A stretch of 64,000 nt of DNA from an uncultured virus (IMG/VR IMGVR_UViG_3300045825_000547) (IMGVR_UViG_3300045825_000547); one strand, 5' to 3'. Shown: positions 4,421 to 52,100, counted from the stretch's first letter. Notes: a model not told the origin generated them from the letters alone. Numbers and translations: made by a program.

Positions 4421-4450
4421 CTTATGCCAACAAATTGTTGTGTATTAACC
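4421..4450 (-). promoter_or_regulatory. Putative phage-specific promoter, copy 1
   Basis: Minus strand GGTTAAT-N13-TTGGCATAAG, ~55 bp upstream of the 4367 start. Confidence 0.75.
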
Positions 4451-4805
4451 CGCAATTGTAAAGCACTGTAACAACTATTTTGTATCTTGTATCACTAAAA
4501 ATAATAGGAATATAGTTGGAACCTTCTGGATATGTAGGAATCTTTATTCTAGAGAGTTTGCTCCTACTAAAATAGTTGTTACAGTGCTTTACAATTAACT
4601 CAAATGTAGATATAGTAAGGAACATCTAAATTCACAACAGGGCTCTAATTCAATGGATTGTCTTATAGAGGGTAGTTGCCTTTATATATAGATATCTTGT
4701 TGCTTGAAAAAGAAAAACAAGAAAACGAAACCAATAAATCCCCCAATTCCTTTTAATGGTTTTTCAGTTCATCGTTGGGCTTTTCTTGTTTAGTTTTTTA
4801 TGTTA
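4421..4805. repeat. ~380-bp intergenic element, copy A, with perfect 28-bp inverted repeat (4454-4481 / 4569-4596)
   Basis: Near-identical to 33953-34318; arms aattgtaaagcactgtaacaactatttt / aaaatagttgttacagtgctttacaatt. Confidence 0.95.
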
Positions 4806-4836
4806 ATGTTTTGGTATATTTTCCAAGGAGGGAACT

Positions 4837-5589
4837 ATGGAAACTGAAAACAAAAAAGGAATGGGTTGGGTAAAACAAGCTCACGATTCTAGAGATATTA
4901 AATACGCATACTCAAACAAAAGGTTTAAAAAGAAAATAGATCTTCGTTGTTATGATCCTGCTATCTACAACCAAAATCAACTTGGTTCGTGTAGTGCGCA
5001 CGCCTTTTCTGCTGCCATTGAGTCTACCCAAAACAGGAACGCTACATCTGCGCATATAGCTCCGTCTAGGTTGTTTATGTATTATGTGAGTAGAAAACTA
5101 GAAGGAACGATTAATGAGGATGCTGGTGCGATCTTACGTGATGTTTGTAAAGCTATTAATATTAACGGGTTCGTTGCGGAAAAAGATTATCCATATATAG
5201 AGAAGAAATTTGCTAAAGATCCAGGGATAGATGTATGTAGATTGGCTCAAATGAAGAACATAAAATACCACGCAGTTGATCAGAATCTTACTGCTATGTT
5301 CCATTGCTTGTCTTCCGGAAAACCTATTGTAATTGGTTTCTCTGTATACAGCAATATAGATAAAGTTGGGAAAGATGGTGTTCTTTCTATGCCTGATACT
5401 ACAAAAGATACTTTTAATGGTGGGCATGCTGTGTTAGTTGTTGGGTACGATCAAGACAAAAAGCATTTCATCGTGCGAAATTCTTGGGGTACCGACTGGG
5501 GGGATAAGGGGTATTTCTATATGCCTTTTGATTACTTACTAAACCCGAGCTTAGCTGCAGATTTTTGGACAGTTGATTTAACTGAATAG
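4837..5589 (+). CDS. Papain-like (C1A) cysteine peptidase
   Basis: [11 protein letters not shown] (catalytic Cys), [10 protein letters not shown] (His), [14 protein letters not shown] (Asn). Confidence 0.92.
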
Positions 5590-5597
5590 GGGGAACT

Positions 5598-6167
5598 ATG
5601 ACAACAGATAATAGCAAGGAATCTAAAAAACCTACAGTGGATGAGATATTATCTCAGTTTTTGTATTCTATTGATGATCCCCCACTAGCGGGTGCGGGGA
5701 GTATTCCAATAATAGGGGACGGTCGTTTGCTAATCACACTTGATCCCAAGCTTTCAGACGAAGCAATATCAACTTTCATTAATATTATTAATAGGATTTG
5801 TTTAACTAAAGAAGAGCAGCAGCATTTCCAAGAGTCTCTTCTGTATGCCGAGAACTTTTCTGAAGCAGATAGGGTGGAGATGGATTTAACCTGTAGGGCT
5901 ATTCATTTGATCCAGGGCGGTTTAGCTCTTTCGCCTACGCAGTCTTACTCACACGAACAGACTTGGGTTTTTATAGATGAGGAAAAGGGTGGAGGGGCGA
6001 TTCAGTGTATTCATTCTTACAGCCTGCACACATCTGTAGATATTAAAACCTGTGCCACATATTTTGATATTGAGGTTGTTCGTCCGACTGTGTGGAGAGC
6101 GGAAGTAAAACTTGTTAAAGACTTGTTCCGTTTTATAAACCCTATTATGGAGATTACCTATAAATAA
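5598..6167 (+). CDS. Hypothetical protein
   Basis: 189-aa ORF with SD, follows the peptidase gene. Confidence 0.65.
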   Translation: MTTDNSKESKKPTVDEILSQFLYSIDDPPLAGAGSIPIIGDGRLLITLDPKLSDEAISTFINIINRICLTKEEQQHFQESLLYAENFSEADRVEMDLTCRAIHLIQGGLALSPTQSYSHEQTWVFIDEEKGGGAIQCIHSYSLHTSVDIKTCATYFDIEVVRPTVWRAEVKLVKDLFRFINPIMEITYK

Positions 6168-6261
6168 ACAAAACCCCCACTCTCGTCTTGGGGGAGAGAA
6201 TGGGGTCTTCGTGGAGTGTTTCATCTACGAAATAAGAAAGGGCTATGCTTATTCTACATCA

Positions 6262-6456
6262 CTACTCTTTGTTTGTCAATCCTTTCACTGCTTGTACCAC
6301 TTTATATATACTTGAGTCCGCCGCCTGCTTATTAAACTGGCTAAGAACAAACCAAAGTTCGCTATCCTCTCCATACTTGGATAACTGGATAGCTTCTACA
6401 ACTCTGATTCTTTTCTCTCTCGCAAGTGCTCTTTCTGTGATTGATCTGGTTGCCAC
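6262..6456 (-). CDS. Small hypothetical protein
   Basis: Follows the amidase gene; SD agga. Confidence 0.45.
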   Translation of the reverse strand: MATRSITERALAREKRIRVVEAIQLSKYGEDSELWFVLSQFNKQAADSSIYKVVQAVKGLTNKE

Positions 6457-6465
6457 AACTTTTTC

Positions 6466-7646: not shown

Positions 7647-7699
7647 ATCGCTTTCTCTGTCATAATAACCTATGATTTAGGTATTGACAAGGAAGGCGC

Positions 7700-12096: not shown

Positions 12097-12605
12097 TGGA
12101 ATTAGATGATGGAAAAGAATTTATAAAGGGAATAGAGGAATCTAGAAAGAAGGATACCGTGGTGGTTAGTCGCGCCGGCTACCCAGCACTAGCGCAATCT
12201 ATTGAGCATGGAGATTCCAACACTTGGATGCTGGCTATCGATGAGGAAGAAGAACTAATCTACGTAACGTTTACGGAAGATGTGGACGGTTATCAGAAGG
12301 TTTTGGATGAGTGGATCGACATGGATAATGGCCTAATAAAAAAGGTAATTCGTATTAGGAAAACGTTAAAGACCACTAAAGCTCCACTAAAAGCTGTGGT
12401 TAATTCCTTAAGACAGCCTATCTGCGCAGCTAAGAAAAAACAACAATACCCTGAGTATAATATTTTGCGTACAGTGGTAAGTGAATCGCATGGGTTGTAT
12501 CAATCTATCTTATTATCTGAAAGAGAAATGATTGCAGAAGAAAAACACCTTAAACGTGAATTAGCAGCTCTACAAAAACTTAGAGAAGCGTGGTATCTAG
12601 ATTAG
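12096..12605 (+). CDS. Hypothetical protein
   Basis: TAATG coupling to tmk. Confidence 0.65.
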   Translation: MELDDGKEFIKGIEESRKKDTVVVSRAGYPALAQSIEHGDSNTWMLAIDEEEELIYVTFTEDVDGYQKVLDEWIDMDNGLIKKVIRIRKTLKTTKAPLKAVVNSLRQPICAAKKKQQYPEYNILRTVVSESHGLYQSILLSEREMIAEEKHLKRELAALQKLREAWYLD

Positions 12606-12634
12606 GGTAATTATTCATAAGTTTTTGGCATAAG
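12605..12634 (+). promoter_or_regulatory. Putative phage-specific promoter, copy 2 (runs straight into a terminator)
   Basis: GGGTAAT-N13-TTGGCATAAG. Confidence 0.55.
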
Positions 12635-12663
12635 AGGGTGAGAGAAAATCTCACCTCTTTTTG
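12632..12663. terminator. Intrinsic terminator at convergent junction
   Basis: agagggtgaga / tctcacctct stem followed by T run. Confidence 0.75.
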
Positions 12664-14772: not shown

Positions 14773-14823
14773 ATTATGCCACGTTCCTTGCGTCTTGGAA
14801 AGACTGCCGATTCGTGGTACAAT
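14773..14823. promoter_or_regulatory. Divergent sigma70/sigmaA-type promoters
   Basis: + strand TTGGAA-N17-TACAAT with extended TG (14795-14823); - strand TTTCCA-N17-CATAAT with TG (14801-14773). Confidence 0.55.
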
Positions 14824-16381: not shown

Positions 16382-16464
16382 AAATAGGGCAACCCTCTTA
16401 GCGGAAAAGAGGGGTATAATAAAATTCACCAATAAAATTTTATGTAAATTAAGGGGCAGATTGC

Positions 16465-23712: not shown

Positions 23713-23729
23713 ACTGTTTTCCTTTCTCT

Positions 23730-27735: not shown

Positions 27736-27765
27736 CTTATGCCAAGTTTTGTTTAATAATTTCCT
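27736..27765 (-). promoter_or_regulatory. Putative phage-specific promoter, copy 3
   Basis: AGGAAAT-N13-TTGGCATAAG. Confidence 0.7.
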
Positions 27766-29578
27766 AGAATCTTCCATCCCCTCCTTGCCCAAATTCTGCA
27801 GCATACACATAGCTTGGGATTGGTTTCCAACCATGGATGTCCACTTTTGCACCAGCAGCCACGTTGGTTTTCAATTGATCCTTCACGAAACGGAATCCTA
27901 GGTTTGATAACCAGTCTCCGCCGTAAATAGCACTTCGTTCTGTTCCGTACATAACCGGTTTAATAACTGCTGGTTTCTTAACCACGTCTATTGAGCCCAT
28001 CCCGTGCATCTTATCTACATGCACTGGTTCAATAAGTTCTCCAGGTTTTAGCCCCACACTAGGCATAGCTTTAGCAGCTCTCCACCCAACAGTTTCCGCT
28101 ATTGGCAAATGTGCATGGAGGATTTTCATCTTATCTAAGTTTCCACTCCAGCTCACTTTATCGCCAATGTTCATGTCGTGATCGCCAGGGTCTTGCACCT
28201 CGCCAAGGTTAAGCATGGCCTTCGCCACAACTTCATACACCTTCGCCATTCCACTAATTCCGGTACTAGAATATGTGTCATTAAGTGCTTTTGCTAAGTG
28301 TTCTCTACCAGCGTCCATTCCTTTCAGTCTAACGATCTCCGCTGGGTTAATAAGTCCATCACTTACGGAATCTCCAGCCAATAATGTGTCACCTTTCTTA
28401 ACCATTAGATTAAGTTTAGGATCTACATAATGGAGCTTGTTGTCGATGAAAACATGACGGCCTCCGTCGGGCGCCTCTTCTATTTTATTAACAATTCCTT
28501 TGTTTTGTGCCAACACACTTCCTCCTGGAAAGTTCTCAGGAACATGCATAAGCTGTTTAACTGTGTCAAACGCACTTCTTTTGGTAACGACACCTCCAGT
28601 ATGCTTGGAGCTTAGTGCCATTTGTGTTAATTTCTCAGTGAGAGCTTGACTGCTCCTTAACCCAATGGAATCCCCTACGTGTGATAGTTTTCCATTCTCT
28701 AAGATTCCCACACACATTCCGCAAACGCCCTCCCTAGCTCTACACTTCAGAGGACTTCTAACTAGAATCTCTTTGTGTCCTTTTTTTATTAACCCTGCCT
28801 GCACTTGGTGATCTATAACGTCATTCCTTTTATAAGGAAGGTAGTCATTACAAAGGTGGCGGTCCAACACATCAGAGCTAGAAGTTTGCATAAGAAGCCC
28901 GTCATGAGTTCCGCAATCTTGCTCAGTTGTTATGAGCTGGTTAGTGAGCATAAAGAACTCTTTACTTAAAGCACCGGGGTCTCTAACGGAGATGAAACTC
29001 TCTACTACCCCTTTTCTCGCACCAGTAGCGGAAATGAAGGCATCAGATGGGGCAAGTCCTGCGGCAAAACTGGATTTACTCATATAAGGCAACACTTTAT
29101 TAGTTACGTCTACTTGGTTTCCTGAGGAGAAAAACATTTGTCGTATGTTGTTCCGATTCCCCTTCCCTCCAATAGTACTCCAACGGTGCACATTAGAGTC
29201 AGAGTCTTTCATGTGTTGCTCTACTAACGCATTTATCTCTGTTTCTATTTTCATATTCACAGCGCGTTGTGCTTCTTCTCTCTGGTGGGTGTCTTTTATT
29301 GTTCTAAGCTTGTTGGATTCGTTGTCATACTTTTTATATATGTGATCAACCGCTATGGGTTTAGTTTCATCAAAGGAAAAAGAACTTCCTTCTAAATAGG
29401 AGTGTTGATCTCCTAATCTTTTCAGTCCACTGGCTACGGCGTTATAGTGCTGGGGGTGTGTTGTGGCAACTTGTTTGAACGCCGCCTTCATACCCGCACC
29501 GGTCATAGGTTCGTATTTTCTTAAGGGAGGAGGAATGAATTCATTGATCATAACCTGCCCTACTGTTGTTGCTACCAT
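27764..29578 (-). CDS. DNA-directed RNA polymerase, C-terminal beta'-like subunit
   Basis: TTVGQ start, bridge helix FISATGARKGVVES, EQDCGT and RSPLKC...GVCGMC Zn site, trigger loop SQALTEKLTQMALSSKHTGG. Confidence 0.9.
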   Translation of the reverse strand: MVATTVGQVMINEFIPPPLRKYEPMTGAGMKAAFKQVATTHPQHYNAVASGLKRLGDQHSYLEGSSFSFDETKPIAVDHIYKKYDNESNKLRTIKDTHQREEAQRAVNMKIETEINALVEQHMKDSDSNVHRWSTIGGKGNRNNIRQMFFSSGNQVDVTNKVLPYMSKSSFAAGLAPSDAFISATGARKGVVESFISVRDPGALSKEFFMLTNQLITTEQDCGTHDGLLMQTSSSDVLDRHLCNDYLPYKRNDVIDHQVQAGLIKKGHKEILVRSPLKCRAREGVCGMCVGILENGKLSHVGDSIGLRSSQALTEKLTQMALSSKHTGGVVTKRSAFDTVKQLMHVPENFPGGSVLAQNKGIVNKIEEAPDGGRHVFIDNKLHYVDPKLNLMVKKGDTLLAGDSVSDGLINPAEIVRLKGMDAGREHLAKALNDTYSSTGISGMAKVYEVVAKAMLNLGEVQDPGDHDMNIGDKVSWSGNLDKMKILHAHLPIAETVGWRAAKAMPSVGLKPGELIEPVHVDKMHGMGSIDVVKKPAVIKPVMYGTERSAIYGGDWLSNLGFRFVKDQLKTNVAAGAKVDIHGWKPIPSYVYAAEFGQGGDGRF

Positions 29579-33766: not shown

Positions 33767-33952
33767 ACTAAAGAAAAAGACAGGTTCGTATCTGGCTTTT
33801 TCTTATAATTCATTTTTACAAAGGCGGGTAACTCTACCAGCCTTTGTCGCGCAGCATATCATCTAATGATGATTTAATAAAACTATTCATATTTCCCCCT
33901 TTCAATGTGGGAACAATAATAGAAAAGAAAAACAAGTTTCTCTTTCATAGTT

Positions 33953-33982
33953 CTTATGCCAACAAATTGTTGTTTATTAACC
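33953..33982 (-). promoter_or_regulatory. Putative phage-specific promoter, copy 4
   Basis: GGTTAAT-N13-TTGGCATAAG. Confidence 0.75.
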
Positions 33983-34318
33983 GCAATTGTAAAGCACTGT
34001 AACAACTATTTTGTATCATGTATCACTAAAAATAATAGGAATATAGTTGGAACCTACTAACTAGGTAGGAATCTTTATTCTAGAGAGTTTGCTCCTTATA
34101 AAATAGTTGTTACAGTGCTTTACAATTAACTCAAATGTAGATATAGTAAGGAACATCTAAATTCACAACAGGGCTCTAATTCAATGGATTGTCTTATAGA
34201 GGGTAGTTGCCTTTATATATATAGATAGTAGTGTGCTGATAAAAGCAAACCTCTCCCAATTCCTTTTAATGATTTTTCAGATCATCGTTGGCCTTTTCTT
34301 GTTTAATTTTTTATGTTA
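33953..34318. repeat. Intergenic element, copy B, with perfect 28-bp inverted repeat (33985-34012 / 34100-34127)
   Basis: Direct repeat of 4421-4805. Confidence 0.95.
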
Positions 34319-34353
34319 TTCTTTTTTAAATTTCGTACACAAAGGAAAACACA

Positions 34354-36442: not shown

Positions 36443-36452
36443 GAGAAACAAA

Positions 36453-37982: not shown

Positions 37983-37994
37983 CCCGTAGAATAA

Positions 37995-39611: not shown

Positions 39612-39658
39612 TGTGTCCCTCGTTCTTGTCTTCTATACCATACCCCTATTGTAACGGT

Positions 39659-41493: not shown

Positions 41494-41938
41494 TGTTCCC
41501 TCCGTCTGTGCTCCCGAATCCTCCGGCCCCTCTTTTGCTTCCTTGTGAGGTTTCCCCCTCTTGTAGCCTAACTTTGAAGAAAGGACAGAAAACCATTTGT
41601 GCAATCTTAGACCCTTTTTGTACCACAATTGGTATATCTGAGATATTGCGCATAATTGCGCCAACTTCTCCCTCAAAGCCTGGGTCAACGGTCCCGGGAG
41701 CATTTGCTACTACTAATCCATTTATGCTATTCCCGCTTCGGCTGCGAACTTGTCCCTCCATTCTATCCGGTAGCCAAAGAGAGAATCCTAGCTTAAATAC
41801 ATACACTTCGTTAGGTTTCAAATATTTCTGTTCTAAGCTAACAAGATCCATTCCCGCGTCACCGTCATGTGCGTACTCTGGAATTTTTGCTTCTGGGTGA
41901 AGAAGCTTAATTATTGGGCTTTCTATTTTATGTATCAT
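41486..41938 (-). CDS. dut: Trimeric dUTPase
   Basis: AGMDL, RSRSG, GTVDPGFEGE, KIAQ, RGAGGFGST (motifs 1-5). Confidence 0.95.
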   Translation of the reverse strand: MIHKIESPIIKLLHPEAKIPEYAHDGDAGMDLVSLEQKYLKPNEVYVFKLGFSLWLPDRMEGQVRSRSGNSINGLVVANAPGTVDPGFEGEVGAIMRNISDIPIVVQKGSKIAQMVFCPFFKVRLQEGETSQGSKRGAGGFGSTDGGNND

Positions 41939-42519
41939 TATTTTTTCCTCTTTGGTGTAATAGTATTACTTATATTTTTTATCAATGTGTCTTGGCTATT
42001 TAAGCAAGACAAAATATTTCTTTCTTCTTCCTCGCCGTGGTATAGAATGGTGAAAGACTGTGTTGGGTCGTTTAGTTCTGACATATTTACAAAGTTCTCT
42101 AGAGAGATCACGACTCTGTTATCTGGCCTATATTCCAGTTTTGGGGTGGCTTGTTCCGTGGAGAATAGAATCATTCTTCCTGTATATACTAGCGACCCCA
42201 GCGCAGAGTCAGAATCAAACTCCACATCTTTCACTTCTATGAAAATAGTTCCTCTACCCCAGATATTATTCACTTGGGCGATATCAACTTTTAGGACTGC
42301 ACCTTCTACTTTGCTCTTTACGTAATGCAAAAGTGGGCCTGGGTTAAAACTGTTCCTTTCTCTGTACTTTTCCTCTTTTTCTTCTAGCTCTTTTTCTTTC
42401 TTCCCTAATTCTCTTCTTTCCAGAATCAGGTTTATCATAGGAGAGCTACTTTTTGCCACTACTTGTTCTAGGAAGCTACTTCCTTCTTTAAGCTTCAGTG
42501 GTTTTCTTTTTGTTTCCAT
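41938..42519 (-). CDS. Hypothetical protein
   Basis: TAATG coupling. Confidence 0.65.
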   Translation of the reverse strand: METKRKPLKLKEGSSFLEQVVAKSSSPMINLILERRELGKKEKELEEKEEKYRERNSFNPGPLLHYVKSKVEGAVLKVDIAQVNNIWGRGTIFIEVKDVEFDSDSALGSLVYTGRMILFSTEQATPKLEYRPDNRVVISLENFVNMSELNDPTQSFTILYHGEEEERNILSCLNSQDTLIKNISNTITPKRKK

Positions 42520-42707
42520 TACTGATTGTCCTCTGTTCTTTCCAGTCCCGCATATTTTATGGGGACTAGGTAATAATTAAAATAATCGGCATTCCAGCCG
42601 CGTTCAAATTGGTTAATTGTGTCTACAACTGATACCAATTTCTTTGTTCGCTTCTCTCTCACTTCCCACGCAAAAAGCCCTTCTGTTTCAGGAACGTTTG
42701 TTTTCAT
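42519..42707 (-). CDS. Small hypothetical protein
   Basis: In tight operon. Confidence 0.55.
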   Translation of the reverse strand: MKTNVPETEGLFAWEVREKRTKKLVSVVDTINQFERGWNADYFNYYLVPIKYAGLERTEDNQ

Positions 42708-42709
42708 GT

Positions 42710-42973
42710 TTAGCCCTCTTCTTCTATAATTCCTACAGTTTTTTTCTTGTCTTTAAAACGACCGATAGCTTTTTCTAGATTAATCCCTTTTATCGGTTCA
42801 TAATTCTGCGGCTCGTACTCTAACCGCGGCTCTAAAAGAAAAGGGGAATACTCTGCAGGATCCGGGAGGTTGCAAAGCGCTTCCCTTCGGGGGATGGAGT
42901 TTTTTCTTAGCTGATCCATCTCACTAGTTCGGAGAAGAAATCTCGCGGCATTTTTCTTCTCATCTCTTGCCAT
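42710..42973 (-). CDS. Small hypothetical protein
   Basis: In tight operon. Confidence 0.5.
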   Translation of the reverse strand: MARDEKKNAARFLLRTSEMDQLRKNSIPRREALCNLPDPAEYSPFLLEPRLEYEPQNYEPIKGINLEKAIGRFKDKKKTVGIIEEEG

Positions 42974-43289
42974 CAGGGAAAAGCTCCGATCTTAGAAATT
43001 GCTTTTGCCCGGTAGCTGCAGAATTTAACCCCTCTGCAATAGAGAACTCCGCAGTGCATGAAGCTCCTGGGATTAACACGGCTATATTAGCATTCAGTAG
43101 AGCAGTAAGATCCCACTGGTCTTTCGGCTCGTTAGGGATGAGTAGATCCGCTTTACTTGTCCCCCACACCCCTTTTCCTAAATGTTCGCCCTCAAGAGAT
43201 TCCCATGTCTCTTTGCTTCTTATAAACCCCCTCCCAGATGGAAGGCTATACCAAACATCTTTTGCTGGAATGAAATTTGATTTTTTCAT
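42960..43289 (-). CDS. Hypothetical protein, WY...AExL family
   Basis: AKDVWYSL ... SIAEGL. Confidence 0.7.
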   Translation of the reverse strand: MKKSNFIPAKDVWYSLPSGRGFIRSKETWESLEGEHLGKGVWGTSKADLLIPNEPKDQWDLTALLNANIAVLIPGASCTAEFSIAEGLNSAATGQKQFLRSELFPDGKR

Positions 43290-43295
43290 TACCTT

Positions 43296-43724
43296 TTATC
43301 CCCCTTTTGTACTTAATAAAATTTTCATGTCTTTATACTCTGTAGCATTTTTGTGATACAGCTCCACGGAACGATTTTGTGCATATGCTTCCGCCAATAC
43401 TTCCGCATGATTGGCAGGAACTACGCGATAAATATGCATTGCTCCCCCATTTACTTCTGCTGGACTGCCCACAAATAGCGTGTAGCTGTTTTCCATAAAA
43501 AAGGCACGAGTTATTGCCCCTTGCTTTGTGACAGCGAAGACTAAACAGTTCTCCGTTTTTGGGTCATCATGTTTTCCCTCGTAATAGATCCAGATGTTTT
43601 CGGGGAAAGAAATGATCTCCTTATACGGGATTATGGGCAGTTTCGCGTATGCGTGGATGAATAAGTTTTTTCGTGGGACAACTATGCCTAGTTTCGATGC
43701 GGAATGATCTATGAGTGTTTCCAT
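43296..43724 (-). CDS. Hypothetical protein, WY...AExL family (divergent)
   Basis: PENIWIY ... NHAEVL. Confidence 0.65.
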   Translation of the reverse strand: METLIDHSASKLGIVVPRKNLFIHAYAKLPIIPYKEIISFPENIWIYYEGKHDDPKTENCLVFAVTKQGAITRAFFMENSYTLFVGSPAEVNGGAMHIYRVVPANHAEVLAEAYAQNRSVELYHKNATEYKDMKILLSTKGG

Positions 43725-43746
43725 TGTTTTCTCCTCGGAATAATAT

Positions 43747-44040
43747 TTAACATGAGAATACTCCGTACACGTAGGAGTATTTTTCGTTCTGGCTTTTCTC
43801 TTTGGTGAGCATTTCTTCTTTCTGCTCTGCTTCCTCTTGCCCTAGCTTTGTGTAGATATAGCGAGTCATCGGGTAAAATATATGGTGTGCATCTACCTTG
43901 GTGGGGGAATACACATGCGCACAAGAAGTGGCAATTCCTCCAGACGTCTGGAGGGCGTTCCCGTGAAGAGGTTTAATAAATCTGATGTCTTCCCTACTGA
44001 GATCCACCCGGTACCAAATACCACCTTGTAGTTCGTTCAT
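43747..44040 (-). CDS. Hypothetical protein, WY...AExL family
   Basis: QGGIWYRV ... EEAEQ; SD aaggagg. Confidence 0.7.
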   Translation of the reverse strand: MNELQGGIWYRVDLSREDIRFIKPLHGNALQTSGGIATSCAHVYSPTKVDAHHIFYPMTRYIYTKLGQEEAEQKEEMLTKEKSQNEKYSYVYGVFSC

Positions 44041-44108
44041 GGTTCCTCCTTATAATAAATAACCTAAAAAGAAAAGGCGAGAGTCTGTCACTCTTCCCGC
44101 CCCCGGTG

Positions 44109-44660
44109 TTACCCGGGTATTATTTTTGCGTAAGTCAAGCCTAGGCTTAAGGCCTCTTCCCTTGTGGTAGGACGACCCCCAGCAGGCAAATCCATAACGG
44201 CTTCACTTGCCCTTATTGGGGCACCGGGGTGGAAAGTCCACAAAGTGAGACCCTCTTCCCCATTCTCCTTCGGTCCGAGAATAAGAACTGTGAAGGATGT
44301 TTCCTGCAGTTCTCGTCCTTTCGGGAGTTTTGCTGCAAGCGAGGCTTTCCCCACCCCTTTAGGATCTATAAGATGCATATCTTGGCACTCATCCTCTTCG
44401 AGAGTGTCAATTGGATAAACCCCCATAAAGCCCGGTATGAAGGCTACCAAACCTACGCACCCCGCGGTAATGCTTGTGTGTGGGTAGGTTGTCCACTCAG
44501 CCCCAAGCACTGCCGCTTTAATCTCCTCCGGGAGAAGATTATAATAGCTGCCGGCCTGCGAGGGGCCTGCTGCCCTTTGGCTGCAGCATTTAGCCAAATA
44601 GCTCGGATCAGCGGTTATCGCGGTAACAATCTCGTTTTTTGAAAGTTTCATTGTTGTCAT
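44109..44660 (-). CDS. Hypothetical protein (first gene after phage promoter)
   Basis: 183 aa; SD gaggag; WTFHPG motif. Confidence 0.7.
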   Translation of the reverse strand: MTTMKLSKNEIVTAITADPSYLAKCCSQRAAGPSQAGSYYNLLPEEIKAAVLGAEWTTYPHTSITAGCVGLVAFIPGFMGVYPIDTLEEDECQDMHLIDPKGVGKASLAAKLPKGRELQETSFTVLILGPKENGEEGLTLWTFHPGAPIRASEAVMDLPAGGRPTTREEALSLGLTYAKIIPG

Positions 44661-44749
44661 AATTTCTCCTCGACCAAAATAAGGTCAAAAATAATAAATA
44701 ATCCTTCCTAGTTTCTTCCATCCATAATGGAAGTCTTGGGCTCATTATT

Positions 44750-44779
44750 CTTATGCCAAAAATAGATAGGAAATTAACC
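44750..44779 (-). promoter_or_regulatory. Putative phage-specific promoter, copy 5
   Basis: GGTTAAT-N13-TTGGCATAAG. Confidence 0.75.
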
Positions 44780-44828
44780 AAGTTTTAGTGGTGTAAAATT
44801 ATATATATATAAGTGTGGAGACTTTGAA

Positions 44829-45244
44829 ATGTTTAACCCGGAAATGAATTATGTATTAGAGAAATTCGCGATGCAGGCCTGGATGAAAAGAGATATGTTA
44901 GGAGTTGGTACCAGAAATGGTGTGACAGAACTACTTGGCGTGTAGGGAATGAAAGGGGGGAGAAATTAATTGGGAACCATGGCAGAGCGGGTTTTGAAAT
45001 GGCCCGTGCAGGGCAGGATCTTCACCAATTTAAATCTGAAAATTTAAGGTCTTATGGGGTTACTACAAAAGAAAAAGCGACAAATGCAGGAAATACCCGC
45101 TTACAACGTTATCGTCAAGAACAACGTGCTATTCCTGAAACAACCAGAGAGTCCCAAGCACAAATAGACAAGAATACCCGTGAATCTTATACTAATAAGC
45201 ACCAAACAGTTAAAGCAGACAAATACCCAGAATTCTCTTTCTAA
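44829..45244 (+). pseudogene. Probable frameshifted KxA-leader gene
   Basis: MFNPEMNYVLEKFA... stops at ~44945; the frame of the 44999 ORF is open from 44837, so one indel would join them. Confidence 0.35.
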
Positions 45245-45283
45245 GCTAAAAGAAAACAGAGATTAGTTTCCCTGTTTTCTTTT
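45243..45283. terminator. Bidirectional intrinsic terminator
   Basis: aaaagaaaacag / ctgttttctttt; minus-strand tail TTTTAGCTT. Confidence 0.8.
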
Positions 45284-45284
45284 T

Positions 45285-45650
45285 CTATTCTTCTTCCTCC
45301 TTCTTCTCCTTAAAAGGGAAAGGGCGGAGATTCAGTCCTATCTCCCCCAGCCACGCAAGTGCTTCGTCTCGGGAATCAAAGTCTGCACTCTGGGCAGTAT
45401 GCCCGCTCTGTAGAGAAAACTGAACATACCAAAAATTAGCATTCAGTTGTGTCTCAAGTTCTTGGATTTTGTCTTTCAGGGTTGGCTGCCCGGATAAATG
45501 CGTTTCTTCTAGTCTAGATTCATACGCACTTTTGATGCCTTCAAGTCGTTTTCTATCTTCTGAGCTGTAAGTGTGGACACGTCTATTGCTTTCCAAAAGC
45601 CGCATACTCTCCGGAGCAGCTATCCACACATCTTTATCAATTTCTATCAT
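45285..45650 (-). CDS. Hypothetical protein
   Basis: ATGA overlap; DKDVWIA start loosely like the WY family. Confidence 0.65.
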   Translation of the reverse strand: MIEIDKDVWIAAPESMRLLESNRRVHTYSSEDRKRLEGIKSAYESRLEETHLSGQPTLKDKIQELETQLNANFWYVQFSLQSGHTAQSADFDSRDEALAWLGEIGLNLRPFPFKEKKEEEE

Positions 45651-46153
45651 TCTAATTTCCTTTGCATTTTATAATATAATTTCTCTAATTCATCTTGTTC
45701 CTCCCTTTCGGTATAATCCAATCTACGAAAGGGAATCCCCAATTCTTCCAACAAAATGATCCCCATTAGCGCTTGTTCATGCCCATACCCGCGGCTTTCA
45801 CAGTTCCATAAAGAGAATTTCTTCTCTTCTAGATTGATATATGGGTAGGTGTCATCTAGGATATGATTCCCCACAATAGAGTCCATATTCTCTCGGATCT
45901 CTTTCTCGGTAGCAGCCCTTGGCCATTTGTTGCGTGTTCCTTGACTTGTCACCCACTCATTTCTTCCTTCGTATAGGCGACCGTCGTGGTAACCTTCCTC
46001 TATAAATATGGAGTGGGAGAAAGGAAAAGAGTCTTTGTCCGCAGGAGTGACACGGCAGAGCGCATCGATCAACTCTTGCCTATTTTTCATTAGGCGTACC
46101 CACCGTTCTTCGTAATATCTGGTTGTTTTATGTTTACTACTCATACTGACCAC
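45647..46153 (-). CDS. Hypothetical protein
   Basis: 168-aa ORF in operon. Confidence 0.65.
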   Translation of the reverse strand: MVSMSSKHKTTRYYEERWVRLMKNRQELIDALCRVTPADKDSFPFSHSIFIEEGYHDGRLYEGRNEWVTSQGTRNKWPRAATEKEIRENMDSIVGNHILDDTYPYINLEEKKFSLWNCESRGYGHEQALMGIILLEELGIPFRRLDYTEREEQDELEKLYYKMQRKLE

Positions 46154-46177
46154 AGTCCTTGAAAAAGCGTTGTCGCA

Positions 46178-46441
46178 TTAGTTTGCATGTCGAGGCTCTC
46201 CTTCGTATGGAGGAATTCTTTCCATTTCCTCTGCCTCTTCTATGTGGCATAAATTATAATCATCACCAGGGTATACCCACAGTCCGGTATGGGGTTGGGT
46301 CCAGCTCCTGCGAGTTATCTGGGCCGAAATCACCCGCCCCTCTTTAGTGGGGAATGCTATGGTTAGCCTAGGCTTTATATACTTCTGCGTTGACCCAAAA
46401 CGGTACCAAAGGTCCTTTTTAAATTCTTCTACCATCTGCAT
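46178..46441 (-). CDS. Hypothetical protein, WY...AExL family
   Basis: KKDLWYRF ... EEAEEM. Confidence 0.65.
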   Translation of the reverse strand: MQMVEEFKKDLWYRFGSTQKYIKPRLTIAFPTKEGRVISAQITRRSWTQPHTGLWVYPGDDYNLCHIEEAEEMERIPPYEGEPRHAN

Positions 46442-46728
46442 TTCTCCGCCTCCTGCGTTAGTATCTCCGCTTTATCTACTCCCACCAAATGGAAAGTTGT
46501 GCCAGAGGGAAAACGATGACTGGCTAAGCTATAAAGCCTCTGCCCATACCCTATGTCAGTGCATAATAGGCCATCTCTTTCCTCCTCCACGATTGCATAT
46601 CTGGTAGGTCTGAGATATTGCAGCGGCTTAATAGTTGAGTTCTGCGCCATATCAACTCGATACCACACCCAGAAGGTCAGTTTTTGCTTTTCTACACGCG
46701 TGCCAGTGTTACCTGCGGGAATACCCAT
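46429..46728 (-). CDS. Hypothetical protein, WY...AExL family
   Basis: FWVWYRV ... DKAEIL. Confidence 0.65.
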   Translation of the reverse strand: MGIPAGNTGTRVEKQKLTFWVWYRVDMAQNSTIKPLQYLRPTRYAIVEEERDGLLCTDIGYGQRLYSLASHRFPSGTTFHLVGVDKAEILTQEAEKCRW

Positions 46729-47033
46729 AGTTTTCCTCCTTTCATTTCTTTTTCCTTCCGCTCTCGCGCTAATTGATTTTCTAATCTTTCAGCTTTCTCA
46801 AAAGAAGCTGGAATAAAATAATCGTCCTGTCTCTTGTCCTTATCTCCACATAACCCGATCTCGTCCGTGGGCGTGAGGACTGTGTAGTTTAAGTAATTTT
46901 CTGCAATTCCGGAGTCCCCTGCTTTAACCCACTGTTTCCATGAAACTCCGCCCTTGTAGCTTTTATCACTATGAAACCTGTACCACATCCCTTCATGGAT
47001 GTGCTTAACTCCTTTACTAATACCGCTCTTCAT
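46692..47033 (-). CDS. Hypothetical protein, WY...AExL family
   Basis: HEGMWYRF ... PASFEKAERLENQL. Confidence 0.7.
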   Translation of the reverse strand: MKSGISKGVKHIHEGMWYRFHSDKSYKGGVSWKQWVKAGDSGIAENYLNYTVLTPTDEIGLCGDKDKRQDDYFIPASFEKAERLENQLARERKEKEMKGGKLWVFPQVTLARV

Positions 47034-47295
47034 CTACCCACCCCTCTAGTCGTAATTGTTTTTCTAATCTTTCAGCTTGTTTAAAAGTTGCTGGGGTAAA
47101 CGAAATGTTGGGTTTAGGTCCTGCACCCCGAATTTCTTCTCTTAAGGGGAGTAGCGTCACAAAATGTAACTCGTGGTAACAATTTCCAGAGCCTCTAGCC
47201 TTAGCCCACCGTCTCTCCACCAATCGCATATCACATACATTTTTACAACGATATCTGTACCACATACCCTCATTGATCTCGTAAACTTTATTCAT
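47017..47295 (-). CDS. Hypothetical protein, WY...AExL family
   Basis: NEGMWYRY ... PATFKQAERLEKQL. Confidence 0.7.
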   Translation of the reverse strand: MNKVYEINEGMWYRYRCKNVCDMRLVERRWAKARGSGNCYHELHFVTLLPLREEIRGAGPKPNISFTPATFKQAERLEKQLRLEGWVDEERY

Positions 47296-48425
47296 TCTTT
47301 TATTTTTCCCTCCCTCTCTAATCTACAAAAGTGATAAGTAAGATACTCCGCGGTCTTCATACCAATTTGTCGAAATTGATGATCGTCCGCGAGAATCATC
47401 GTTCTGTCTCCTCTTCTAACGTCAGCCTCAAGCCTCTTTCCTTTATGGTACTCTCCCCGGTAAGTCAGACTTGCGCACATCGTGTGGGAATCAAGCATTA
47501 CAAATGTTCTATAAAAGCTAACGGCGCGTGAGTGATCTTTATAGGAAATTTCATACCAAACACCCGCTTCTATGATGTCCACAGGGACAAGGGTTTTGTC
47601 ATACGTGGGACCACTAGAGAAGGCATTAGCCCAAGCTGAGTCTAGTATATGCGTAAGATACTCATGTGCCTTCGGGTTATATGGGTTGAGCGCTGCCCCC
47701 TTCTCCACAAAAGTTCCAGTATTGGCACCAACCCGCGCTTGTGTAAGCTGTGCATAAAGATCAACTGCTGGGGTTGGGTCTATTATTCGTCCGAGCTTTG
47801 GTGGCTCGTCCCCCCACCAAGTTACTTGAATTTTCTCACCTGTAGCGGGGTCTTCTATCAGCTCTGTACGAAGCTGTGGGGAGGGTGGTGGGGCAAGGAG
47901 CAAGGGCTTGGTTTTGTCTTTCTCTATTTCTTTTTCAAGAAGCGGGTAAGTTTTTGCTAGGAACCATTCTTGCTCGTTCAATGTATCTGCTATCAGCTTC
48001 TCCATATTTGGTAGCGAAAACACTTCTACCAAAAACGGTTTTTTGACAAACTCCCTTTTAGTGGTTTGATGGTCTCCACCATTACGTTGTCCGGTTGCTC
48101 CATAGTCCTTCCCTTTTCGCCCAATACAACAATATACTCGGGCATCGTCGTATATCAAAAAGGAAACTGCAAGTTCATTATTCCATGAGTTTTTAGGAAG
48201 TAGTGGAAGCTCTAGTTCTTTATACGTATCCGCTTTGCTCACTTTGATCTTTCTCAAACCCTGTATGACTTTTGTAAACAAGACCCACCCTATCTCCGCA
48301 TCTTTTTTGTATTTCTCTGCTAATTGTTCTGGGGTGAGACCTTGATCGTATAGGGCTTGCCGCAGGTCTCTATCATATTTAGCCTGTACCAGAGTGTGCA
48401 GGTCAATCAGTTTTTCAATATCCAT
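47292..48425 (-). CDS. Hypothetical protein with C-terminal WY...AExL domain
   Basis: EAGVWYEI ... KTAEYL in the last ~95 aa. Confidence 0.7.
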   Translation of the reverse strand: MDIEKLIDLHTLVQAKYDRDLRQALYDQGLTPEQLAEKYKKDAEIGWVLFTKVIQGLRKIKVSKADTYKELELPLLPKNSWNNELAVSFLIYDDARVYCCIGRKGKDYGATGQRNGGDHQTTKREFVKKPFLVEVFSLPNMEKLIADTLNEQEWFLAKTYPLLEKEIEKDKTKPLLLAPPPSPQLRTELIEDPATGEKIQVTWWGDEPPKLGRIIDPTPAVDLYAQLTQARVGANTGTFVEKGAALNPYNPKAHEYLTHILDSAWANAFSSGPTYDKTLVPVDIIEAGVWYEISYKDHSRAVSFYRTFVMLDSHTMCASLTYRGEYHKGKRLEADVRRGDRTMILADDHQFRQIGMKTAEYLTYHFCRLEREGKIKE

Positions 48426-48455
48426 ATTTTTCCTTTATTCATACAATAAAATAAA

Positions 48456-48487
48456 AAAAGAAACACCTTGCTAGTTGTGTTTCTTTT
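48456..48487 (-). terminator. Terminator-like hairpin
   Basis: aaaagaaacac / gtgtttctttt with T run on the minus strand. Confidence 0.65.
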
Positions 48488-48493
48488 GTGCAG

Positions 48494-48841
48494 TTAGTTT
48501 CTAATGAACCCTCTCACCCACATCACCTGCCCGTCGGCATCTCTACCCGCAGAATATCCCGTGTCGGGGGAAATCAAATCACCTCTGGTCGGGTTGGCAA
48601 GACGCACAACCAATGAGACGATTAACCAGGTCCCTTCTTGGTGGGGTGGGAGGTTGGCAGTCTTCTCCTTGCCCAGCCTACTCACCGGGTATTTCAACCC
48701 ATTTACTACGATGTGGCCCTCCTCCTCGACGGAGGAAATGACTCTAGCGGGGGCCACCTTGGGGTCTTTTGGGAAAGTGGTGTAACCGCTCTCACACCAC
48801 ACTTCCACGTCGTGGGGTGTAAGGTTTTTTATTGTTGCCAT
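48494..48841 (-). CDS. Conserved phage hypothetical protein
   Basis: IKNLTPHDV...ARV...LP...IVS...R.DL.SP...RD..GQ; start moved to ATG 48841 (SD gaggagg). Confidence 0.7.
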   Translation of the reverse strand: MATIKNLTPHDVEVWCESGYTTFPKDPKVAPARVISSVEEEGHIVVNGLKYPVSRLGKEKTANLPPHQEGTWLIVSLVVRLANPTRGDLISPDTGYSAGRDADGQVMWVRGFIRN

Positions 48842-48879
48842 AAAATCCTCCTCCCCGCACATCCGGGGGAATATAATAA

Positions 48880-49053
48880 TTAAGTGTCTCTTCTAGCGGT
48901 GTCTAGGAAATGGCTTTGCACCACTAAGTGCTCGACTATAGCGGTGTTGCTTCCGTTTCTGGGCTTCCCCGTTATAGTGATATCCCCATTTGAGTGTGTC
49001 TCTACACACACCCAGAAATACTCTGTAATAATTGTTGTTTCACTTTTAGACAT
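48880..49053 (-). CDS. Small hypothetical protein (first gene after phage promoter)
   Basis: SD aaggagg before ATG 49053. Confidence 0.55.
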   Translation of the reverse strand: MSKSETTIITEYFWVCVETHSNGDITITGKPRNGSNTAIVEHLVVQSHFLDTARRDT

Positions 49054-49107
49054 AACGTCCTCCTTGGCAAAAATAATGCCAAAAATAATAGGTTTTTCTT
49101 TCATATA

Positions 49108-49137
49108 CTTATGCCAAGAAAAAGCTAAAAAATAACA
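49108..49137 (-). promoter_or_regulatory. Putative phage-specific promoter, copy 6
   Basis: TGTTATT-N13-TTGGCATAAG. Confidence 0.65.
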
Positions 49138-49138
49138 C

Positions 49139-49165
49139 AAAAAACTCCCCCACAAAGGAGGAGAA
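49139..49165 (-). terminator. Intrinsic terminator after the RNAP gene
   Basis: Minus strand ctcctcc...gggggag stem then T run. Confidence 0.65.
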
Positions 49166-49190
49166 ATTTATAGATTGTAGAAAGAATTTT

Positions 49191-52100
49191 CTACATTTTC
49201 TTTATTTCTATATGATCATTGATTGCAATCTGCTTATTCTCGTAAGCTTTCTTTGCATCCTCCACAGTGTTGAAGGTGTGGATAGGCTTAGCTTGGTTTG
49301 GAGAAGAGATTGCATTAAGTCCCATAATTGTTTCCTGTTGAGGAAGATGCCAGAGAGACTTGTCCAATACATGGAACAGGTTGTTAGAAGGAAGCATTTG
49401 ACGAGCTTCTGCGATGGCTTCGTTGCTGATCGGGAGATGACAGGTCGCTGTATCAAACACAACCCACGAGGACTCTGTGACCATTGTGAAGTCTGGTGGA
49501 ATTGTGAGGTCGTATGCTTCGGTGAGATCCGGAACTGGTGTGATCTCTACCACATTTTCCCAATGTGTATTTTCATCAAGCACCCATTCTTTCCAACGAA
49601 CCCAGAAAGGAGATTTGTCAAGTTCAGGCAGGTTGAGTGCAAGGATTGATTTACAGTTCCCCATAGTAAGGAAAGGAGATCTGCCGTTTTTCCCTTTCAC
49701 TATATCGTTTAGTGTAGTGTAGAGAGAACAACGTGCAGAGATGTTTGCCATTTTCACAGGATCGTCAGATACAGGAATGTTAGTTCCTTTCTTGAACTTT
49801 CTAGGAGCTCCCACCATCTTCTGAAGCTCTGCAACTCTTTCCACAGAGGTAGGTGGGCCATAGAACTCTCTGTCCACATCTACATCTCTTGCTTGAAGGA
49901 GGTTAGCTTGTTTGAGTGGGTGAGAAAGTACAATCATAGACTTTAATCTATACACACTATCACTACTAAAGAACACTGTGTAACAGACTCCCCCAGCAGG
50001 TGTTTTGCCAACTGTCACGCCAACAGATAAACCAAGAGTATTACCGAGTGCAACGATCTCAAAGGCTAATCTTTCTGATGTGGTGGTTATGTTTAAGTTC
50101 GCTTGTGGCTTGTCTTTTCTCTTGCCTGAAGCATTTATATCCATAGCACCGTCTGTGTCAATCAACCCAGCAAGGAGGCCTTTTCTGAAAGCAATCGGGG
50201 ACTCTAAAAAGAAATCAGGGAAGTGTTTGTTCTGTGCTTTGTGCCCAACCCATTCTTTTATTAAAGGCCCAAGCATACCTGCAGCAGACCAAGTAACTTT
50301 AGCCGATTCACAATCATAGCCTTGGTATGTGTGGTCGTTGTTTACCCAAGACAAGTGAACTTTATCCCCGTTAGCTGCAACAATGTTTTCTTGTATTATT
50401 TTTTCCCATCTAGCATCCATCGCTTTGGTGGTAGATGCAAAACATAAATAAAATTGACTACTATGGTTACCCGCAGAGATCCAACCATCTCCCACAATAC
50501 AACCAATCAAATAACCGGTGTCGTAGTTTAATGGCATTTTTTCTCTTAGAATATGTTTATGTCCTTCGTTATTTACTGGTAACACCACTTCGTCTAGTGA
50601 GTGCTCATACACTGGTTTTGTTCTAATCGGAACAAGCATCTGTTCTTTTGGTTCAGATTTTACTATGTTTAAGTCTTTGTCTAGTGTTACCAAAGAGTGA
50701 TCTTTAGAACAGATAACGGTTCTGTGACGATTGGTTTTCACGTTAACCATGGTCAGGCCCCTATGAACAGAGAAAGACTCTGGCTTAAGCCATTTGTATT
50801 CTCTATCGTTTCCAAGAACTAACACTTCCACACCTTCCGGTACATCGTAGAAATCTGTGTTTTCCTTTGTTCTTTTGGTTTCCTCAAGTCTAGGGAAATC
50901 TTTTAAAAGAGTGAGCCCGTTTTTGTAAAGCACTCTGTTGTTAATTGGCATCTGATCATTGTCCTTTTCTGACAAAATATTGTTATAAGAAACTTCGGTT
51001 TCCTTCGTTTCCTTATGCCAAGAATTATAGCAGAATTTCCCTTGGGTGTCAACTATCTGAGATCGCTGAAACACTGATGAATAACACGAATCACCGTCAA
51101 AATCCATATTAAAGCCCTTCACTGCCATAGTACTCATGTGTATTGTCTTACCCTCAACAATAGTTGGGTTGAACGCCACGAACGAGTGCTTATGAAGACT
51201 TGGCGCTCTGTTGAGCATTACAGGTCTCTTAGCCATCTCATTAACCAGCATAGTGTGGGCAAGTGGGGTTTGCTTCTCTAATTCTTCTTTTGCTCTAGGG
51301 ATCGAGAACCCATTCTTTACCATTTCCCCTGCCACAAAGTTTCCGTACAATTTCCATGCCATTGGCTTCGGAATCCCCACTTCATCGAGCCCCATTTTTG
51401 GGTTAGGCGCTACTGTAGCTCTACCTACTAAATCTTGCACTCTACTAAGTAGTTTAGATTGGAAGAATCCCATTTTCGGTTGTGTTCCTACTAACACTTT
51501 TAGGAACCCGCTTGGGTCTCTATTCTTATTAGCAGCCATGTCCCCTGCTGTGGGGTCGAGTCCTTGTAGCTTCTGTACACTCTCGTGAAGCCCTTTATAT
51601 CGTTCCAAGTTAATTGGGTCATTTGGCCCGAGTGCTTGGCTTAAAGGGTCACTCAAGAGCTTATTAAAGTGCACCACTTCTTGGTACAATCTGTTAGCAT
51701 CTGTAACCACGGTCTTTCCTTTCTCATCTGGGTAGATAGGGCGGAATTTAGGAGGAATAATTGGTATCACATTATTCACATAGGCATCTACTGGGTGAAG
51801 CTTCATAGAGTCTAAAGCGGATAAGTACTTTATCTTCTTGATTAAAGAATCCTTTTTATCAAGGGTTTTTGCACCAGCTAACTCGTGGTGATATTTCTGA
51901 AGATCTGCTTTCACATTGATCTTTTTCAAGGCAGCTTGGAAGGCTTCAGCGCCTCTCATTTGTTTTCCATCTACCATCATGTGAGCTGAGCCATCTGCTA
52001 CGGCTTTGAATGTCTTTTGGTCTATATCTAGCAAACTTCTTATTGGTTTCTCATACATGCTGTTCACTACGGGACGAGCTAATTGGATATGAGTCCAATG

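Follow-up and report, generated by a model that had tools for sequence, protein, structure and literature searches.

Early promoters of jumbo phages that encode an RNA polymerase (RNAP) are described, in the passages cited here, as highly conserved motifs of about 10 nt that are centred near -10 and lie upstream of early operons (PMC7598289). The same passages report RNAP-encoding jumbo phages without sigma factors, and sigma-encoding jumbo phages without an RNAP (PMC7824862, PMC7598289). Here we examine a 64,000-nt stretch of DNA from an uncultured virus (IMG/VR IMGVR_UViG_3300045825_000547), hereafter the window, which carries seven copies of the 10-mer TTGGCATAAG, each preceded at a fixed distance by a second box. 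Like the motifs described in those passages, the conserved part of these sites is about 10 nt long and lies near -10, upstream of presumed early operons. We think it rather likely that the sites are a clade-specific, sigma-dependent promoter class, probably serving early genes and probably read by the phage's own RNAP, which is encoded as a fused beta-beta'N protein and a beta'C protein.

The window is part of an uncultivated phage genome from a wetland metagenome. Judging from contigs of the source run, the whole genome measures at least ~150 kb; one contig of 120,739 nt runs past the window. A second wetland run (X2) is identical to the stretch 33000-52000 wherever it covers it.

Results

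A two-box element recurs seven times with invariant spacing

A preliminary description of the window had listed seven copies of TTGGCATAAG, each with a 7-mer box exactly 13 bp upstream, and its coordinates, strands and 7-mers were reproduced exactly. The 10-mer lies at 4421(-), 12625(+), 27736(-), 33953(-), 44750(-), 49108(-) and 51012(-); dinucleotide-preserving shuffles of the window contain 0.16 copies on average and 2 at most, and 0 of 100 reach seven. The complete sites are:

Site 1, 4421..4450 (-): GGTTAAT-N13-TTGGCATAAG, with an ATG 53 nt downstream, before a leftward operon (4367->2296) of six small open reading frames (ORFs)
Site 2, 12605..12634 (+): GGGTAAT-N13-TTGGCATAAG, between convergent genes
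Site 3, 27736..27765 (-): AGGAAAT-N13-TTGGCATAAG, its box overlapping the beta'C stop codon, with a TTG start 64 nt downstream (operon 27671->)
Site 4, 33953..33982 (-): GGTTAAT-N13-TTGGCATAAG, with an 18-aa mini-ORF 62 nt downstream
Site 5, 44750..44779 (-): GGTTAAT-N13-TTGGCATAAG, in a divergent 338-bp intergenic region, with an ATG 89 nt downstream
Site 6, 49108..49137 (-): TGTTATT-N13-TTGGCATAAG, right behind the RNAP-gene terminator (49169-49142), with an ATG 54 nt downstream
Site 7, 51012..51041 (-): GGGAAAT-N13-TTGGCATAAG, within the intein of the RNAP gene

Mismatched variants of the 10-mer are near chance level, with 94 matches at up to two mismatches against 75.4 expected (4 of 100 shuffles reach 94). 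In a position weight matrix (PWM) scan of the window, the seven sites reached 40.7-46.4 bits and the best place elsewhere 13.3. Because this runner-up is within the range of the maxima in 20 shuffles (4.2-18.3), the motif is all-or-none, with no weak copies. The upstream box is significant in its own right: the best 7-column block 5' of six sites coincides with it and holds 9.96 bits, whereas the null maxima were 7.28 and 7.20 bits (3000 random sets and 3000 slid sets). Site 4 was dropped from this test as a duplicate of site 1. These two sites are not independent, as both lie in a divergent intergenic region of about 450 bp that is present twice (4384-4812 and 33916-34325; 96% identity over 246 nt); between the duplicates a 1-nt indel shifts the distance from a TTTACA to the box, and the box-to-10-mer spacing is constant.

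No DNA nearly identical to the window was found in the phage collection. In IMG/VR, the exact two-box pattern (16 specified bases) occurs in 41 contigs with a single match each, which looks like chance.

The sites have sigma70-like geometry and a G at -7

At all seven sites a -35-like GTTAAT, or a variant of it, is separated by a 17-bp spacer from CATAAG at -12..-7, with T-G at -15/-14 and invariant bases at -13 (G), -12 (C), -11 (A) and -7 (G). The spacing falls at 7/7 sites within the 16-18 bp of two-box promoters of the sigma70 family, and the geometry reads as that of such a promoter, departing from it in the C at -12 and above all in the G at -7. A housekeeping sigma would call for A at -11 together with T at -7; the A is present at 7/7 sites, yet -7 is G at 7/7. 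By their sequence, the sites are not standard housekeeping promoters, and they are compatible with a sigma-family reader whose recognition of -7 is altered. Past the hexamer comes a conserved pyrimidine-G-A (Y-G-A), at 5 nt in sites 2, 6 and 7 and at 6 nt in sites 1, 3, 4 and 5, with a purine-rich run on its 3' side; the predicted transcripts would begin GA(A/G)AGA. Geometry, placement and conservation together make it highly probable that the seven sites are promoters.

Such promoters could instead be read by the host housekeeping holoenzyme, maybe in phage-modified form, as extended -10 promoters (TGn plus CATAAG, with a weak -35) in which the G at -7 tunes strength or timing. The motif departs from TGnTATAAT at -12 and -7 alone, TGnCATAAT boxes are also found in intergenic regions of the window (7659, 14780), and sites 1 and 4 overlap TTTACA-17-AACAAT. 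Site 7 overlaps a perfect sigma70-like promoter sequence, one of two 12/12 matches in the first 60 kb scanned:

51024..51052 (-): TTGACA-17-TATAAT with TG, 12/12 matches, overlapping site 7, its -10 stopping 2 nt short of TTGGCATAAG

Host promoter sets, however, do not show ten invariant bases without weaker copies, and sigma70-like matches of a generic kind are no more frequent in the window than chance predicts (42 vs 42.9, 32 vs 39.1 and 32 vs 34.8). Together with the choice of base at -7 described below, this leaves reading by the host holoenzyme unlikely.

The early promoters of N4 virion RNAP are DNA hairpins read by a single-subunit enzyme. At the window sites there is no inverted repeat inside the span from box to 10-mer and no hairpin within the motif or 5' of it; the stems are downstream. 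The sigma54 consensus has GG at -24 and GC at -12, 10 bp apart (TGGCAC-N5-TTGC); TGGCA is present in the sites, but TTGC or TGC stands at the required distance in 0/7. Promoters of sigma54, sigma28, sigmaB/F, sigmaH and the sporulation sigmas resemble the element in part only (GTTTAA..GGGTAT for sigmaB, ATAA for sigma28), and no claim is based on this resemblance.

Placement of the sites and downstream hairpins

Two RNAP genes serve as landmarks for the placement of the sites:

49191..55679 (-): fused RNAP beta-beta'N gene, 2162 aa, with an intein/LAGLIDADG insert and its own upstream TTGTTC-17-TATAAT
27764..29578 (-): RNAP beta'C gene, 604 aa

As had been proposed, five of the seven copies (sites 1, 3, 4, 5 and 6) head co-oriented operons, whose start codons or, at site 4, mini-ORF lie 53-89 nt downstream. 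The site 4 operon continues from its 18-aa mini-ORF through a 70-aa ORF, an Erf/Rad52-like gene and others to beta'C as its last gene; the operon of site 5 starts at 44660 and consists of small ORFs, finishing near TerL, and that of site 6 starts at 49053 with a 57-aa ORF. Upstream of sites 1, 4 and 5, which are in divergent intergenic regions, no gene runs in their direction; sites 2, 3 and 6 are downstream of co-oriented genes. At site 7 the 10-mer falls in an 11-aa stretch, SWHKETKETEV, that is absent from the homologous intein of an IMG/VR relative, G001. An in-frame ATG with an AAGGA ribosome-binding site (RBS) 60 nt downstream of site 7 would give a 586-aa C-terminal fragment with the endonuclease domain; that site 7 is an internal promoter for this fragment is speculation.

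Most copies are indeed followed by a short hairpin. At six of the seven a stem of at least 6 bp is predicted within 42 nt downstream, and the downstream 42-mers have a mean minimum free energy of -7.6 kcal/mol, against -3.5 for shuffled sequences and -5.25 for random genomic 42-mers, a modest excess. A terminator-like hairpin with a T-run (12636-12656) begins 1 nt past site 2 and holds the predicted start G within its 5' arm, so that the full stem would presumably form only in transcripts coming from upstream. Site 3 is likewise followed by a hairpin (27725-27700). Short stems also precede the RBS of the first gene after sites 6 and 5 (49064-49082, TTGGCA-N7-TGCCAA; 44666-44696, GACC..GGTC), in 31-nt stretches that are 84% identical.

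Two readings in which the motif would not be a promoter bear on these hairpins. On one, UUGGCAUAAG and the next hairpin form an RNA-level signal, a processing or stability element in polycistronic transcripts begun elsewhere. The hairpins after 6/7 sites agree with this, as do sites 2, 3 and 6, which would be transcribed since they lie downstream of co-oriented genes. The fixed 13-bp box, the TG and A at sigma positions and the Y-G-A at 5-6 nt, however, are features of DNA recognition, and no co-oriented gene lies upstream of sites 1, 4 and 5. With the evidence from relatives given below, we consider an RNA signal very improbable. On the other reading, the motif is an operator or an ops-like antiterminator-loading site, bound by a regulator or loading a factor that could override the terminator-like hairpins right after sites 2 and 3. 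Ten invariant bases with an all-or-none distribution and the inverted repeat TTGGCA-N7-TGCCAA 25 nt past site 6 would suit such a site, but the 10-mer is non-palindromic, and placement, two-box geometry and start-site signal fit a promoter. In the relatives, moreover, almost all small gene clusters of one strand have the motif in front of them, and such clusters need promoters. We would give this last alternative hardly any weight.

The core motif recurs in relatives with a fused RNAP

The best deposited relatives of the fused RNAP, at ~31% identity, are Salmonella phage Arash and Vibrio phages D181, D148 and D69. In IMG/VR, G001 (32% GC) has a beta'C of 46% identity, and an alignment of four beta'C proteins led to 55 loci, mostly in genomes of 140-195 kb; beta'C searched as a single protein in metagenome contigs gave 162 pattern matches and 0 relatives.

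The exact 10-mer TTGGCATAAG is absent from G001. Common to the relatives is a core, G(G/T)(C/T)ATAAG, which is strand-biased and lies upstream of genes. In Arash (53% GC), GGTATAAG occurs 31 times against ~4.8 expected and ranks first of 560 words of the same composition (mean 5.2); 30 of the 31 share the strand of the non-structural genes, with an RBS and ATG 25-45 nt further on. The Arash consensus has a weak box, ttCCAwAA, at -22..-15, then tGGTATAAGtAAagTGTAa and a GTGTAA start region. D181 (45% GC) has 26 copies of G[GT]TATAAG, 24 of them on one strand. Its variant GTTATAAG, which surfaced only through de novo counting, is in upstream regions in 11 of 18 cases and has a TCAATAA box 13 nt upstream. 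A T-G or T-A analogous to the Y-G-A of the window is present in Arash, D181 and a further relative, G002.

The layout of the window recurs most fully in G001. Three of its six GG[CT]ATAAG matches are intergenic and co-oriented, and two G001 sites read GGTTAAT-N13-CCGGCATAAG and AGTTAAT-N13-TCGGCATAAG, that is, (G/A)GTTAAT-N13-NNGGCATAAG; the same two show the GTTAAT-N15-GGCATAAG arrangement of the window. De novo, TGTTAAAAT and not the core motif dominates the intergenic regions of G001. The genome of G002 is complete (161.6 kb, 38.6% GC), and its + strand carries all 12 copies of GGTATAAG, mostly before small genes and in 10 cases in intergenic sequence.

We scanned 22 whole IMG/VR relatives with the reversed pattern as control. 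A one-strand excess of at least threefold was found in 10 of them (G008, G011, G012, G013, G014, G015, G016, G019, G020 and G023), for example 34/1 against 8/10 for the control; the excess is twofold in G017, and G002, G003, G007 and G010 show strand bias only. In the four loci viewed directly (G008, G013, G017 and G023; GC 40-62%), the sites lie before genes, with a TTCAAT-like box ~16 nt upstream. Across IMG/VR, TTCAAT-N15-17-GGTATAAG is found in at least 124 stretches, nearly all of them with a single match.

From these comparisons a class can be defined: G(G/T)(C/T)ATAAG with a T(T/C)AAT box 15-16 nt 5', co-oriented with genes, 25-90 nt before their starts, in phages with the fused RNAP. 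All seven window sites have these features, which are likewise seen in G001, Arash, D181, G002 and the four loci viewed directly. By this definition TTGGCATAAG of the window is a local variant of the clade's promoter class, with C at -12. That the promoter is specific to the phage lineage, as first proposed, is very probable, given that the core and, in G001, the two-box spacing recur in distant phages with a fused RNAP.

The relatives also bear on the RNA-level alternative. A GGAG..CTCC stem follows the motif at about half of the D181 sites, and one G023 site has almost the same hairpin as window site 2, both in favour of an RNA signal. On the other side, leftward units of Arash begin with the motif, which abuts a rightward motif, and most Arash sites have no hairpin.

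In the G023 locus concerned (L135 146-190; G023:C1:5145-), the hairpin GGGGTGAGAG..CTCACCTC and a T-run come after GGTATAAG. The hairpin nearly equals the stem after window site 2, and in G023 an RBS and ATG come directly next. No homologs of window proteins were found in the 20-kb G023 locus.

The base at -7 and a second candidate promoter class

In bacteria, T at -7 is, in the passages cited, one of two bases that are flipped out and bound by the housekeeping sigma (PMC7598289). In Arash, the base that follows the same heptamer is G in 31 cases, T in 2, A in 4 and C in 4. The D181 heptamer GTTATAAN is followed by G (GTTATAAG) 18 times, as against T 1, A 7 and C 4, and the window heptamer GGCATAAN by G (GGCATAAG) 9 times, as against T 2, A 5 and C 1. 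By these counts the base at -7 is selected for G. This preference over T (31:2 in Arash, 18:1 in D181, 7/7 window sites) argues against reading by the host holoenzyme.

In G002, a T-class, GGTATAAT, has 23 copies, 15 of them on the - strand, many as aGGTATAATAt before large genes. The G-class and the T-class of this phage are two sets that differ in strand and in the genes served, which also speaks against a single host reader; the base at -7, G or T, sets two promoter classes apart. The sister class is, for its part, a perfect GGTATAAT, as host reading would have it, and the specificity of housekeeping sigma is nearly universal across bacteria, so that conservation across hosts does not by itself exclude the host enzyme.

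The window has four intergenic boxes of the T-class form, G(G/T)YATAAT:

14773..14780 (-): candidate second-class promoter with T at -7, GGCATAAT, before operon 14732->
7659-7666 (+): intergenic box with T at -7, GTCATAAT
16413-16420 (+): intergenic box with T at -7, GGTATAAT
25654-25661 (-): intergenic box with T at -7, GTTATAAT

These boxes (7659, 14780, 16413 and 25661) precede operons for lysis, nucleotide metabolism and large proteins. The preliminary description had assigned sigma70-like -10 boxes to the virion-protein operons and the RNAP gene; operons lacking the motif do have boxes with T at -7, in the form of these four and of TTGTTC-17-TATAAT before the RNAP gene.

The second class of Arash and D181 differs: there it is cTAAAATA(t), before structural, lysis and beta' genes (on the + strand in D181). 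In Arash this motif sometimes abuts GGTATAAG in reverse complement, as CTTATACC joined to TAAAATA, at 109247/109249, 137629/137631 and 139405/139407.

A further window sequence, GGCTAAAATCAAATAGG at 29606-29622 (-), ~35 nt before the beta'C RBS, resembles the cTAAAAT(A/C) found before Arash late genes, including those for portal and beta'.

Sigma-like genes in relatives and RNAP in Arash virions

Arash encodes two sigma-like proteins. Gp10 (234 aa) is FliA/WhiG-like (6.7e-12, below the curated cut-off), and Gp196 (345 aa) is RpoD/RpoS-like (2.2e-22), scoring above the cut-off for the sigma-70 superfamily. Homologs of the two, with 44% and 42% identity, are encoded by D181. G002 has sigma-like proteins of 254 aa and 344 aa, the gene for the latter lying 198 nt downstream of a G-class site, and a 218-aa protein of G001 gives a full-length sigma-70 superfamily match (3.1e-7, below the cut-off).

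According to the part of the Arash report drawn on here, Arash virions contain RNAP beta, with the most spectra of any protein, together with beta' and the sigma Gp10, and Gp196 does not appear in that part of the virion table (PMC10585845). The word 'promoter' occurs 0 times in that paper (PMC10585845).

Other features of the window and its relatives

The duplicated region that holds sites 1 and 4 has its own symmetry:

4384..4812: duplicated divergent regulatory region, copy 1, with site 1, a 28-nt inverted repeat (4454-4481 / 4569-4596) and a rightward TTTACA-17-TATAGT
33916..34325: duplicated divergent regulatory region, copy 2, with site 4 and the same 28-nt inverted repeat

The 28-nt element, (C/T)AAAATAGTTGTTACAGTGCTTTACAATT, has four copies in two inverted pairs: 4454-4481(-), 4569-4596(+), 33985-34012(-) and 34097-34127(+). 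It contains TTTACA, resembles the second-class motif of D181, cTAAAATATAGTTAC, and may be a late-type promoter facing both directions. Near-identical leaders of ~220 nt (4597-4836 and 34128-34353, +) precede a peptidase gene (4837) and gene 34354 and have no Rfam match. Directed at the peptidase gene, a perfect TTGACA-16-TATAAT lies at 4002-4029 (+), antisense within the leftward gene 3701-4078. Two perfect 12/12 sigma70-like matches per 60 kb seem, by impression, to be above chance. Contigs of 29,350 and 120,739 nt both end at the duplicated region.

Among the other genes of the window are those for the large terminase, ThyX, thymidylate kinase, an Erf/Rad52-like annealing protein and lysis enzymes, with a weak capsid match at the right end; the window contains no Rfam family and no tRNA. 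The ribonucleotide reductase gene (16465-18768) also bears an intein. The intein of the RNAP gene (approximately 49454-51089, -) sits directly after the catalytic NMDFDGD of beta'. Aligned with G001, it apparently begins with Ser (Thr in G001) and ends in Asp before Thr or Ser. In D181, a free-standing homing endonuclease gene splits the fused RNAP gene into two ORFs (144071-149585), at another place than the intein of the window phage and G001. G002 encodes a TIGR-Tas-type RNA-guided endonuclease (95804-96658, +; 1.5e-59, above cut-off) and a protein resembling group II intron reverse transcriptase/maturase (23472-24548, -; 7.5e-33, below cut-off).

Discussion

The reading we prefer takes the sites as one promoter class, with a -35-like G-TTAAT, a 17-bp spacer, T-G at -15/-14, CATAAG, a discriminator of 5-6 nt and a Y-G-A start. 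It would drive operons of small hypothetical genes, recombination genes and beta'C, probably early or early-middle in infection; these genes are taken as early because they are small and without homologs. Specificity would come from a phage-encoded sigma-family protein, coded outside the window and related to those of Arash (Gp10, Gp196), D181, G002 and G001, with the G at -7 setting the class apart from that with T at -7. Reading through a phage sigma is likely, a view suggested by the selection at -7 and by the co-occurrence of sigma-like genes with the motif. The core enzyme would most likely be the phage's own fused beta-beta'N plus beta'C RNAP, and, to judge by the virion proteome of Arash, the virion may deliver it along with the sigma. 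That a phage core is packaged and reads early genes is a fair possibility, somewhat short of an even chance, pointed to by one virion proteome and by the kind of genes served.

Several observations weigh against this reading. In D181 the pattern GGYATAAG alone is unenriched (12 vs 14 for the control), 7 of the 22 scanned relatives (G004, G005, G006, G009, G018, G021 and G022) show neither excess nor strand bias, and in 54 loci of ~20 kb around beta'C, which are late-gene neighbourhoods, the motif occurs 116 times against 120 expected. The motif is one step from the housekeeping extended -10 (TGnTATAAT), and its sister class in G002 coincides with the TATAAT form itself, GGTATAAT, so that host sigma-A may read some or all of these sites. 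Terminator-like hairpins immediately after sites 2 and 3 are odd for a promoter, and site 2 is directed into a convergent operon. beta'C is within a motif-headed operon in the window, but the RNAP genes of Arash are behind the other motif class. Sigma and core co-occur in all these phages, so that the comparison cannot tell which core is used. The sigma-like specificity factor suggested at the outset has candidates in Arash (2), D181 (2), G002 (2) and G001 (1); among the 68 window proteins, which leave most of the genome outside, sigma models gave no match (Pfam E<=0.5; NCBIfam E<=0.05), and BLAST of Gp10, Gp196 and the sigma-like protein of G001 against the window found none at E<=0.1.

Later transcription, which the preliminary description would leave to host RNAP, may be phage-directed as well, since a further sigma and a further conserved motif occur in relatives. 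We tentatively sketch, as a scheme more doubtful than the reading above, a clade of 140-195-kb phages that combine a fused beta-beta' RNAP, phage sigmas and a private promoter code: the packaged enzyme with a small sigma would read tGG(C/T)ATAAG on entry, and such a promoter would also give rise to a second, larger sigma, which would later turn that enzyme to another class (GGTATAAT for G002 and the window phage, cTAAAATA for Arash and D181).

To our knowledge, phages bring either a sigma-independent polymerase or sigma factors for the host enzyme; here a core enzyme and sigma-like genes are found together in a widespread clade, most of it uncultivated. If the scheme is right, no sigma-dependent virion RNA polymerase would have been known before this one, and one base, that at -7, would be its class switch. 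The promoter code is testable, in that its classes differ at the very base flipped by the housekeeping sigma and that the clade has cultured members in Arash and D181. It allows early genes and late genes to be predicted for some 50 metagenomic genomes and, if confirmed, would supply promoters and polymerases as orthogonal parts.

No description of this promoter was found in the literature searched, and the matches listed for the strings GGTATAAG, TTGGCATAAG and GGCATAAG were primers or unrelated. Compared with the virion-RNAP early promoters of phiKZ and AR9, as the passages cited describe them, the window sites are alike in a ~10-nt motif near -10 that was found by sequence analysis and in a phage multisubunit RNAP homolog; Arash, a relative of the window phage, likewise has RNAP subunits in its virion. 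Phages of the phiKZ/AR9 type are described there as having split beta and beta' in two sets and no sigma, whereas the window phage has beta and beta'N fused in one set and its relatives encode sigma-family proteins (PMC7824862, PMC7598289). The window motif further differs in having a -35-like partner at fixed spacing, with sigma70-like geometry.

The phage sigma-dependent promoters of T4 (gp55, late TATAAATA) and SPO1 (gp28, gp33/34) operate on host core. The window class would resemble them as a private, highly conserved promoter class that differs from the host consensus through a phage sigma-family protein. T4 and SPO1 have no RNAP core of their own, however, whereas the clade has a phage core, co-packaged with sigma in Arash, and the window -10 retains most of the housekeeping consensus, with its chief difference at -7. 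The analogy with N4 and crAss-like phages drawn in the preliminary description holds for strategy only, a packaged polymerase on early genes being possible: the window stems are downstream of the predicted start, so that the sites are not hairpin promoters, and the enzyme is a bacterial-type multisubunit homolog. With the bacterial extended -10 promoter (TGnTATAAT) the sites share TG at -15/-14, ATAA at -11..-8, the 17-bp spacer and a predicted start ~7 nt downstream, and they differ from it in the C at -12, the invariant G at -7 and -13, and ten invariant positions.

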